Under the pieces are notes generated by a model. The model did not search any database. It saw only the letters and a list, made by a program, of their open reading frames with translations, and was not told where the DNA came from. Of a DNA stretch of 61,778 nucleotides, positions 31,923 through 58,274 are shown in pieces. Position 1 is the stretch's first letter. Each line of letters opens with the position of its first letter. This DNA is from a virus (Duplodnaviria; Heunggongvirae; Uroviricota; Caudoviricetes): IMG/VR virus record IMGVR_UViG_2778261381_000005; one strand, written 5' to 3'. Position numbers and translations under genes: made by a program.

Positions 31923-33178
<1,256 letters not shown>

Positions 33179-41154: not shown

Positions 41155-41176
41155 CAAGAAAACATGTTGTTTAAGG
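41155..41176 (+). promoter_or_regulatory. motif 1 palindrome with extended upstream box CGATAATnACACCAnCAAGAAAAC
   Basis: caagaaaacatgttgtttaagg; extended box shared with 43265 and 43755 copies. Confidence 0.45.
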
Positions 41177-41184
41177 ATTGCTTT

Positions 41185-41514
41185 ATGTTTGCACATATCG
41201 ACATCAACCAAATCAAGAAATTGACTCAAAAAGAGTTTGACCAGTTCTATGAGCTGGAAGGTTGGTCTTCCACTCTGATCAATTCGCGGTGGGTGCTTGA
41301 GCTGATGACTCGTGATGATGCACCTGCTTTGATGATTTGCGACATGGGTGAAGATGCTGACTTTATGGATATGAGCGAATTTTGTGTGGACACATACAAC
41401 CGCAGCCAGAAGTACTACTTCACATGCGATAGCGAAAATGACGTGATTTCTAAGGTCTATCTTCACCTCGTCCAGCATTGGGACGTTCAGGAGTTTCTTG
41501 AGGTATTCGCGTAA
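41185..41514 (+). CDS. hypothetical protein
   Basis: RBS aagga; ORF-track ATG at 41164 lies inside motif 1. Confidence 0.5.
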   Translation: MFAHIDINQIKKLTQKEFDQFYELEGWSSTLINSRWVLELMTRDDAPALMICDMGEDADFMDMSEFCVDTYNRSQKYYFTCDSENDVISKVYLHLVQHWDVQEFLEVFA

Positions 41515-41582
41515 TCCCAACCAAAGCCAGCATTGCTGGCTTAATTTCTCTATAGCCGCAGGGAAGAACCTGCATATCGATC

Positions 41583-41978
41583 ATGCACCTGATCATTATG
41601 CTTTGTAGCCGTTTTCTTACTGGTATTATTTACGCCATTGAGAAAACAAGTTGTTTACGGAGTTGTGATGAAAAAATCATTGGTTCTTGGTCTGGACAAA
41701 GACCAGAAGAGAAAGAGAAGCCTGCGCTGGTTGCTCAATTAACTTTGCTGGACATCGTTGCCAATGGAACCTCTATTCGTCTGTTCCGTGAAACAGCGGT
41801 GTCTTTCGATAAAAACACCTTTACTCGTTATGTAATGAATGTTCGTCGCCAGCGTGGAAAAGGCTGGGTGGCATTTCAAAGAATGTGGCCGGAACATCAG
41901 CTCGAACTGGCCTTGATGGAAGTTAACCGCGTGGCCCAGCAAGAGATTCAGAGAGCATCAGTGATGGCAATAGCCTGA
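41583..41978 (+). CDS. hypothetical protein; start uncertain, possible frameshifted gene
   Basis: Motif 1 and RBS point to ATG 41668 in +1 frame, which stops after 24 codons; see findings. Confidence 0.3.
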   Translation: MHLIIMLCSRFLTGIIYAIEKTSCLRSCDEKIIGSWSGQRPEEKEKPALVAQLTLLDIVANGTSIRLFRETAVSFDKNTFTRYVMNVRRQRGKGWVAFQRMWPEHQLELALMEVNRVAQQEIQRASVMAIA

Positions 41979-42012: not shown

Positions 42013-42040
42013 AGCCCCGCCATCCTTACGGGGCTTTTTT
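42013..42040 (+). terminator. rho-independent terminator
   Basis: GCCCCGC catcctta CGGGGC followed by TTTTTT. Confidence 0.65.
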
Positions 42041-44296: not shown

Positions 44297-44837
44297 CTGA
44301 GAAGAGGGCCAGAAACGGCCCTTTCTCTATAGCCACCAGCTGCCGCAGGGAAATTTTCAGAAACGGCGAGGAACGTATTCATGAGCCGACGGGAAACGGC
44401 CAGGATTTTTTCGGGAAACGGCTGCATTCGCCTTTATGTAGAAAAAAACATCGGGAAGCTGGTGGAATCCAACCAGCGGTTGTCGGACAGGCGAGCGGGG
44501 AAAATTATGATGACTTTCGTCGCCTGAGACATCCAGATTTCTTTCGTAGCATAATCACATACGTGATTAAGTGGTGTGATTATGTGAAAAATCACGCGCA
44601 CATAATACGCGAGCGGATACGGAACAAAACAAAATGCCGATCCGCGCCGACAAATAAACGCGGATCACATAGCAAGACTAAAAGCCAATGATTAACCATA
44701 CGCTATAGCGCAATATAACGCGTTTTAAGCGCGTTAATGTGTTAAGTAATGGGTATGTACTGGTAAGGATATAAAAGCGCGTTTATGGCGTTATTTTGGC
44801 GCTTATTTTTATGTTGTTGGAGTGAGTTAAAGACAAT

Positions 44838-45144: not shown

Positions 45145-45164
45145 GATTAAGCTCCTTAAAAAAA

Positions 45165-45368: not shown

Positions 45369-45416
45369 TTTCAAAGCTCCTTTAAAGCGCCCATAGTGGG
45401 CGCTTGATTCCATTAA

Positions 45417-57398: not shown

Positions 57399-58274
57399 AT
57401 GCCATTACTGCGTGAAGAAGCTGAAAAGCTGTCTAACAACGAACTTGAACAGGGTGTGATCGAAACTATCATCGATCGCGATGACCTGTTTGCCATCCTG
57501 CCTTTTATGAAAATTAATTCAAAGGCATATCTGTACAACCGTGAAAAAACGCTGAGTGAAGCTACCTTCATCGACGTTAACGACACCATCCCTGAAGGTG
57601 CAGCAACCTTCGAAGAATGCGTTGCGAAACTGCGTATTCTGGCTGGTGACGTAGACGTTGATAAATTCCTGGCGACCACTATGGCCGACACCAACAACCA
57701 GTTGGCTATTCAGGTTCGTCAGAAAGTTAAAGGTCTGGCTCGTGCGTTCCGTCGCAACCTGATTTTGGGTGACTCCAGCTCCAACAACAAGGCGTTTGAC
57801 GGCATTCCACGCCTGATGCACGCAGATCAGAAGATCGATATCGCCGGTGCATCTATGACTTTCTCTATGTTCGACGAACTGGTCGATGCGGTGAAAGATC
57901 TTGGTGCTGACTGCATCATGATGCGTTCAGAGCACCTGCGTGCTTACCGTGCGCTGCTGCGTACAGTAAACGTAGGTCCGTCTGAAATCATGATGGAGAA
58001 CTTCGGTCGTCCGATGCTGTGTCATAACGGCGTTCCGTTCATCATCAACGACTTCATCCCGACCGATTCTGGCAAAGCAAGCATCTACTGCCTGCATCTG
58101 TCAGAAGAGAACGGCGTTACTGGTCTGTATGGCGGCGACAACGCAGGTATCGTTGTTGAAAACATTGGTACTGTACAGAACAAAGACGCAGTACGTACCC
58201 GTGTGAAGTGGTACTGCTCTCTGGCGAATAAGCACGATAAGGCTATCGCTGCACTGACCAATGTAAAAATTTAA
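57399..58274 (+). CDS. major capsid protein
   Basis: Position after scaffold; RBS aaaggga; strong terminator downstream. Confidence 0.65.
   Translation: MPLLREEAEKLSNNELEQGVIETIIDRDDLFAILPFMKINSKAYLYNREKTLSEATFIDVNDTIPEGAATFEECVAKLRILAGDVDVDKFLATTMADTNNQLAIQVRQKVKGLARAFRRNLILGDSSSNNKAFDGIPRLMHADQKIDIAGASMTFSMFDELVDAVKDLGADCIMMRSEHLRAYRALLRTVNVGPSEIMMENFGRPMLCHNGVPFIINDFIPTDSGKASIYCLHLSEENGVTGLYGGDNAGIVVENIGTVQNKDAVRTRVKWYCSLANKHDKAIAALTNVKI

Follow-up and report, generated by a model that had tools for sequence, protein, structure and literature searches.

The SSU5/pHCM2-like phage-plasmids form a group described in PMC7969092, and Escherichia phage Cyrano is the LF82 element (PMC9928086). 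The window, i.e., the whole stretch of 61,778 nucleotides analysed here (IMG/VR record IMGVR_UViG_2778261381_000005), is a phage-plasmid of this SSU5/pHCM2-like type, and is contig PGHY01000028.1 of the E. coli draft assembly GCA_002887175.1. The region considered below shares 96-97% identity with the Escherichia phages Cyrano, PhiR41_1, and CMS-2020a. Further matches are to plasmids of E. coli, Shigella, and E. albertii, more than 200 in number, which are non-mobilizable and ~110 kb long. Coordinates are those of the window, and features are on the + strand unless stated otherwise.

Among the genes of these elements is a small one, designated SSU5_113 in Salmonella phage SSU5 and CYRAN_106 in Cyrano, which in the relatives is intact and in the window is interrupted by the loss of a single base. 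We propose that this loss is probably a genuine and recent mutation private to the isolate, of a slippage origin, which would render the gene non-functional or strongly hypomorphic.

The intact gene and its family

When four A residues (A4) are present where the window has three (A3), ATG 41668 opens a CDS of 312 nt, and this is how the gene has been annotated in Cyrano (CYRAN_106), PhiR41_1 (XSB42481.1), and plasmid CP091393.1 (K2839_25460); the same start is annotated in SSU5_113, pJN226_0038, and QBP27484.1. The product in the relatives has 103 aa, MKKSLVLGLDKDQKRKEKPALVAQLTLLD…MAIA, and begins with MKKSLVLGLDKDQKRKEKPALV…, not with MKKIIGSWSGQRPEE…, the N-terminus deduced in an earlier note on this DNA, which was written from the letters by themselves. 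Once repaired, the window protein is 100% identical to the Cyrano and CP091393.1 proteins, and its residues 1-103 match positions 1-103 of the PHROG 5125 profile (E value 3.2e-63). The results from tblastn include colinear 103-aa homologues with 62-64% identity in Salmonella phage SSU5 (SSU5_113) and in seven Klebsiella phage-plasmids. When 5.8 billion proteins were searched, only 22 clusters were recovered, all of them enterobacterial (Escherichia, Cronobacter, Buttiauxella, Citrobacter, Klebsiella, and Salmonella) and with a modal length of 103 aa. The 103-aa homologues of the SSU5, Klebsiella, Citrobacter, Cronobacter, and Buttiauxella elements have a common start, and the protein alignment places their N-terminal pattern, M..(S/M)(L/I)….L(D/S)K.Q.RK(E/D)KP, in the frame of ATG 41668. 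The exact intact protein is encoded on at least 1000 contigs, and dN/dS ranges from 0.11 to 0.31 where dS is unsaturated. Judged by these comparisons, the conserved, predicted monocistronic gene of 103 codons, with purifying selection in the relatives, is a real gene.

Searches of Pfam, NCBIfam, PADLOC, and a PDB profile for the function of the 103-aa protein returned no match. In the AF2 model the basic N-terminal tail is disordered, and the folded part comprises a beta-meander of four strands and a long C-terminal helix. Fold searches gave no significant match.

Reading frames of the window

The segment 41400-42200 was read and its ORFs were listed, and the description in the earlier note was confirmed: the GGAG, ATG 41668, the A6 run behind it, the 24-codon frame, the 131-aa ORF, and the frame which an added A would join to the ATG are all in the sequence as it had reported. 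The Shine-Dalgarno (SD) sequence GGAG (41659-41662) lies 5 nt 5' of the ATG and is invariant across the Escherichia, Salmonella, and Klebsiella elements. The ATG itself (41668-41670) is the true start, as the earlier note had supposed; it is the start annotated in the relatives and the one from which the PHROG 5125 profile matches over 1-103. The A6 run (41671-41676) is simply two AAA Lys codons, invariant in close sequences, unremarkable, and not the site of the lesion.

As written, the frame from ATG 41668, MKKSLVLGLDKDQKRKRSLRWLLN, stops at TAA 41740-41742 after 24 codons (41668..41742), of which the first 16 encode wild-type residues and the final 8 (RSLRWLLN) are read out of frame. The remaining 87 codons and the stop (EKPALVAQL…MAIA; 41715..41978) are now in the -1 frame relative to ATG 41668 and are otherwise identical to wild type. 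The uninterrupted frame of ~103 codons from the conserved ATG, which typifies the family, is therefore lacking in this disrupted copy, whereas the family context is retained, including a promoter/leader motif of its own and the same neighbour genes as in the SSU5-like elements.

The 131-aa ORF (41583..41978), whose frame is one base behind that of ATG 41668, is a chimera of 43 codons, which run through the promoter, the leader, and the wrong-frame 5' end of the gene, and 88 genuine codons. The earlier note had allowed for this ORF being conserved from 41583 as written. This is not so: in close relatives the ORF that begins at the counterpart of ATG 41583 is out of frame and only 69 aa long, and in SSU5 the frame of the gene is open for a single codon 5' of the true start. 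ORFs of 131 aa and 129 aa exist only where a frameshift fuses the upstream frame to the gene body. Moreover, ATG 41583 is without an SD sequence and precedes the conserved -10 element, and the promoter and leader context would thus place it outside the likely transcript. Because the ORF is not conserved, has no SD sequence, spans the promoter and leader, and starts 5' of the -10 element, we rejected it as a real gene. RefSeq lists its product as an ordinary protein (WP_252357477.1) rather than as a frameshifted pseudogene; from the frames described, the predicted protein is an annotation artefact, a by-product of the frameshift, and the entry should become a frameshifted pseudogene of the 103-aa family.

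Position and rarity of the deletion

The earlier note had suspected a one-base slip in the A6 run as a possible cause of the interruption. The interruption by one base is borne out, but its place is not. The lesion is a one-base deletion at 41712-41714, where the alignments and the locus survey give A3 for the window and A4 for all relatives. Against four phage records it is the sole indel in the gene (GAG-AAA-GAG in the window, GAG-AAAA-GAG in the relatives), such that GAGAAAAGAG in the wild type becomes GAGAAAGAG in the window, while the A6 tract is identical in the window and all four records. The closest plasmid, CP091393.1, differs from the window by the same A4 versus A3, and a 431-nt query has 99.8% identity to both MF554642.1 and NZ_CP151018.1 with the gap as the sole difference. 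In a survey of 33 loci, A4 was present in 30, and A3 only in the window and the window's own record (L035); A4 is likewise carried by each of the 25 loci retrieved from IMG/VR with the A4 pattern. The A6 tract, by comparison, was found in 31/31 close sequences including the window, i.e., in 30/30 relatives, and distant homologues have A5 or A2 at this position by substitution.

Adding one A to A6 in silico does join ATG 41668 to the frame ending at 41978. However, the resulting N-terminus aligns with no homologue, and the A7 product is absent from ~15 billion proteins. A lesion in the A6 tract was therefore rejected. The first 15 residues of the protein as repaired in the earlier note are wrong because the site it suspected is off by ~40 nt, the lesion being that far 3' of the A6 run. 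The case is a caution that the lesion behind a broken start need not be in the nearest homopolymer; here it was located only by comparison with relatives.

The deletion falls in a 16-nt purine tract, AGAAGAGAAAGAGAAG (41705..41720), in which two frameshift alleles have been observed. In the wild type this is an imperfect 7-nt tandem repeat, CCA-GAAGAGA-AAAGAGA-AG, and the lost A was at the junction of the units. The second allele is that of a metagenome contig from ENA (ERZ1311050 NODE_12130; L036 in the survey, 1017 bp), a more divergent copy of the gene in which one unit of the repeat, GAAGAGA, is deleted (7 nt, equivalent to window 41706-41712), yielding a chimeric ORF of 129 aa analogous to the 131-aa ORF of the window. 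At ~1x coverage, this 7-nt deletion may be a sequencing error. Other damaged singletons of the PHROG 5125 family are hit elsewhere in the gene.

The A3 allele is very rare. A 51-mer with A3, centred on the lesion, had no exact match in the 192 PLSDB plasmid records or in the 216 complete E. coli plasmid records, and among the matches listed for these two sets each spans 52 nt, i.e., carries A4. Exact-pattern scans found A3 in none and A4 in 25 of the IMG/VR contigs scanned, and A3 in none of the JGI metagenome contigs. The frameshift product has been recorded only from PGHY01000028.1 and from two contigs of 20-50 kb attributed to Logan re-assemblies of public read sets. Within these collections, the A3 allele is private to PGHY01000028.1.

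Promoter, leader palindrome, and terminators

The gene is preceded by a terminator-like hairpin with a T-rich tail, AATTTCTCTA (41524..41552; stem 41524-41542), which ends the upstream gene and which, by alignment, is kept in SSU5 and the Klebsiella relatives. It is followed by a second terminator-like hairpin (42013..42040), AGCCCCG-(9-nt loop)-CGGGGCT and a T run, which was read directly from the sequence after being missed by a terminator scan, its loop being longer than 8 nt. With such hairpins on both sides, the gene would be its own transcription unit. An extended -10 element, TGgTATTAT, is predicted at 41621..41629; it is invariant across the Escherichia, Salmonella, and Klebsiella elements, and the other copies of the motif described below carry the equivalent TGcGATAAT. 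A simple promoter scan did not call this element at 41621..41629. We infer that it would act as a promoter with a transcription start near 41636-41637.

Between the -10 element and the SD sequence lies motif 1, the palindrome AGAAAACAAGTTGTTTA (41641..41657) with arms AAACA/TGTTT, which is invariant across genera; AAACA-N3-TGTTT is the palindrome form of the leader at 41641-41657. The motif, already pointed out in the earlier note, is real: AGAAAACA-N3-TGTTTA has 19 matches at no more than 2 mismatches in the window, compared with 0.77 expected. Its recorded positions are 4100, 15538, 25761, 26490, 39245 (- strand), 39294, 41157, 41641, 43293, 43778, 52894, and 52919. Copies of the motif are situated ~10 nt 3' of a -10 element with the sequence GATAAT or TATTAT. 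The 22-mer is found again at 41157 and 43293, with the same upstream architecture. The other strong copies have the ATG of an ORF of at least 95 aa within ~12-30 nt, the copy at 41641 being the exception. The non-coding block GCCGTTTTC…TGGTATTATTTAC…AGAAAACAAGTTGTTTACGGAGT is nearly invariant in Escherichia, Salmonella, and Klebsiella, with the protein ~63% identical. Folding of the leader RNA at motif 1 gave nothing notable (z=-0.09). A leader RNA hairpin is thus unsupported as the role of the motif, and we prefer a reading as a DNA operator because the leader is without a notable RNA fold. Motif 1 is probably an operator through which many small genes share one regulator. Between genera the promoter and leader palindrome is more strongly conserved than the proteins downstream, and it merits separate study.

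One of these copies bears on the annotation of the neighbouring gene (41164..41514). The ATG of its longest ORF, 41164, is inside the motif-1 copy at 41157-41173, and the real start is probably ATG 41185 (109 aa), which has AAGGA 5' of it. The latter start is annotated in PhiR41_1, CP091393.1, and the gene call of the source assembly, while Cyrano has the longer form.

Other differences from relatives

Comparison with the relatives revealed several further differences, which are recorded here in their own right. On the - strand, hsdS has an extra in-frame 12-bp unit relative to CP091393.1 (32591-32602, within a repeat at ~32596-32631), such that T-A-E-L occurs three times in the type I S subunit of the window and twice in that of CP091393.1. 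Central-repeat changes of this kind alter the length of the spacer in the recognition sequence of type IC enzymes (EcoR124I versus EcoR124II). At 45385-45404, the loop of the terminator-like hairpin AAGCGCCC-ATAG-TGGGCGCT is in the opposite orientation (ACTAT-type) in CP091393.1 and in two loci from IMG/VR, and as aligned this is a hairpin-loop inversion polymorphism. At 57537-57544, CP091393.1 is without 8 nt (AACCGTGA) which are present in the window, the deletion being in the relative. The ORF concerned (57399..58274), in the structural module, is intact in the window (291 aa), while CP091393.1 has only an ORF of 197 aa and no listed CDS at this place; as predicted from the alignment, CP091393.1 carries a frameshift in its counterpart. 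Finally, intergenic A-runs are length-polymorphic among the relatives (A5/A6/A7 at 44442 and A6/A7/A8 at 45158), whereas the A6 and A4 tracts within the coding sequence of the 103-codon gene are not.

Origin and consequences of the deletion

Under the reading that we favour, one A would have been lost from A4 where the two 7-nt purine repeats meet, most likely through slippage during replication of the short repeat or the homopolymer. Ribosomes starting at ATG 41668 would then incorporate 16 correct residues and 8 wrong ones before stopping at 41740, and the remaining 87 codons, in the -1 frame, would go untranslated except for rare spontaneous -1 slippage. The same deletion would fuse the upstream out-of-frame stretch to the gene body, giving the 131-aa ORF.

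A less likely explanation, though one with a real claim to attention, is that the plasmid truly has A4 and an intact gene, and that a base was dropped from the consensus through a sequencing or assembly error. The uniqueness of A3 among hundreds of relatives is what an error would produce, as is the identity of the rest of the gene to wild type, and the other damaged alleles of the family are singletons scattered in draft assemblies, which resembles background noise. The gene shows no further decay, with wild-type identity except for the gap, as would be expected in equal measure of a very recent mutation and of an error. A3/A4, however, is a very short homopolymer, and the contig gives no sign of a systematic problem with such runs. 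Over 40.6 kb aligned to CP091393.1 at 99.5%, it has 166 substitutions and only 8 indels, among which that at 41712 is alone in removing or adding one base within an annotated gene. Of the other homopolymer differences, those covered by enough of the surveyed loci are the A-runs at 44442 and 45158, and at both the window has its allele in common with several independent relatives, and the sharing of such alleles argues against systematic homopolymer error in the assembly, for which the indel comparison likewise found no evidence. In addition, the identical frameshift product is present in the Logan-attributed contigs, and so the A3 allele seems to have been recovered by an independent assembler as well. 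A literature search by assembly accession (GCA_002887175.1) found no paper. From these observations we infer that the deletion is probably present in the DNA and is not an error.

If the deletion is genuine, its effect might be softened by the sequence that it leaves behind, since A_AAG is now in the zero frame at 41712-41715. The minimal site for a -1 shift in bacteria is Z_ZZN, in particular A_AAG, and deletion mutations have been compensated at sites of this type before (PMC5009743). At GAG_A_AAG_AGA (41709-41718), the tRNA-Lys on AAG could re-pair with AAA one base back, a geometry which we read from the sequence; the next codons would then be GAG AAG CCT, and the resulting …K-R-K-E-K-P… is exactly the wild-type protein. 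Nevertheless, it seems very unlikely that compensatory -1 slippage here makes a low level of wild-type protein. There is only the tetranucleotide A_AAG, within G_AGA_AAG, and no heptameric X_XXY_YYZ; the fold of 41716-41790 (MFE -14.2 kcal/mol, z=+0.27 versus shuffles) shows no notable structure; no SD-like (AGGAGG-like) stimulator lies upstream; and the arrangement is conserved in no relative. The product would be a small fraction at most, and nothing suggests selection for it. The fuller proposal, in which GAAGAGA-AAAGAGA is a mild mutational hot-spot and the -1 nt allele is a hypomorph with slippage at A_AAG restoring protein to about the percent level, likewise commands little credence, if marginally more. 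Were it true, the allele would offer a natural example of an indel combined with a compensatory frameshift, by which the dose of an accessory phage-plasmid protein is lowered. Programmed -1 frameshifting as a property of the gene was rejected, because the intact homologues are all single-frame proteins of 103 aa and there is neither a heptamer nor a structure.

The earlier note had also raised a homopolymer switch at A6. A phase-variable contingency locus of this sort, acting through A6 or through the purine repeat, we consider extremely improbable. In its favour are the two independent frameshift alleles in one purine repeat, i.e., the -1 nt allele of the window and the -7 nt allele of ENA NODE_12130. 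The latter, however, comes from a contig of ~1x coverage, and other damaged alleles of the family lie elsewhere in the gene. Phase-variable tracts typically have at least 7-8 identical bases, and the tracts here, A6 and A4/A3, fall well below the lengths found in known switches. Nor does tract length vary among hundreds of relatives to give ON and OFF frames: A6 is constant in the close sequences surveyed, its A7 form is missing from the protein databases searched, and A4 is present in all rows listed of the 192 and 216 plasmid records. Similarly, a site of transcriptional slippage needs a run of ~8-9 or more A or T (reviewed in PMC5009743), and the longest run here is A6.

A genuine loss of one base, as favoured above, would carry small biological weight, in that a small accessory gene would be, or would seem to be, lost from the phage-plasmid of one isolate.

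Comparison with known systems

The repaired window sequence is a full-length member of PHROG 5125, like SSU5_113 and CYRAN_106, whereas from the window copy as written the family protein cannot be made. The contingency loci of Neisseria, Haemophilus, and Campylobacter share with the window a mononucleotide run near the 5' end of an ORF, the length of which sets the frame, but the runs of the window are short (A6, A4) and constant across hundreds of relatives. In dnaX (A_AAA_AAG, with SD and hairpin stimulators), as in the window, a Lys AAG is preceded by A and would allow tRNA-Lys to re-pair in the -1 frame; unlike dnaX, the window has the tetranucleotide only, with no stimulators and no conservation, and its relatives are in frame. 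The 'savior indel' of the G-run in herpesvirus thymidine kinase (PMC5009743) resembles the window in combining an inactivating indel with slippage that could restore a trace of product, but there is no sign of selection for the indel of the window, and its run is A3 rather than G7.

The closest likeness is to the sporadic frameshift pseudogenes of draft genomes. In these, as in the window, a single-base deletion occurs in a short homopolymer or repeat in one isolate, the intact gene is conserved and under purifying selection in the relatives, and a spurious longer ORF is annotated automatically. There is no difference of substance between the two, the in-frame A_AAG being the sole unusual detail, and the event at this locus is probably an ordinary sporadic frameshift of an accessory gene.
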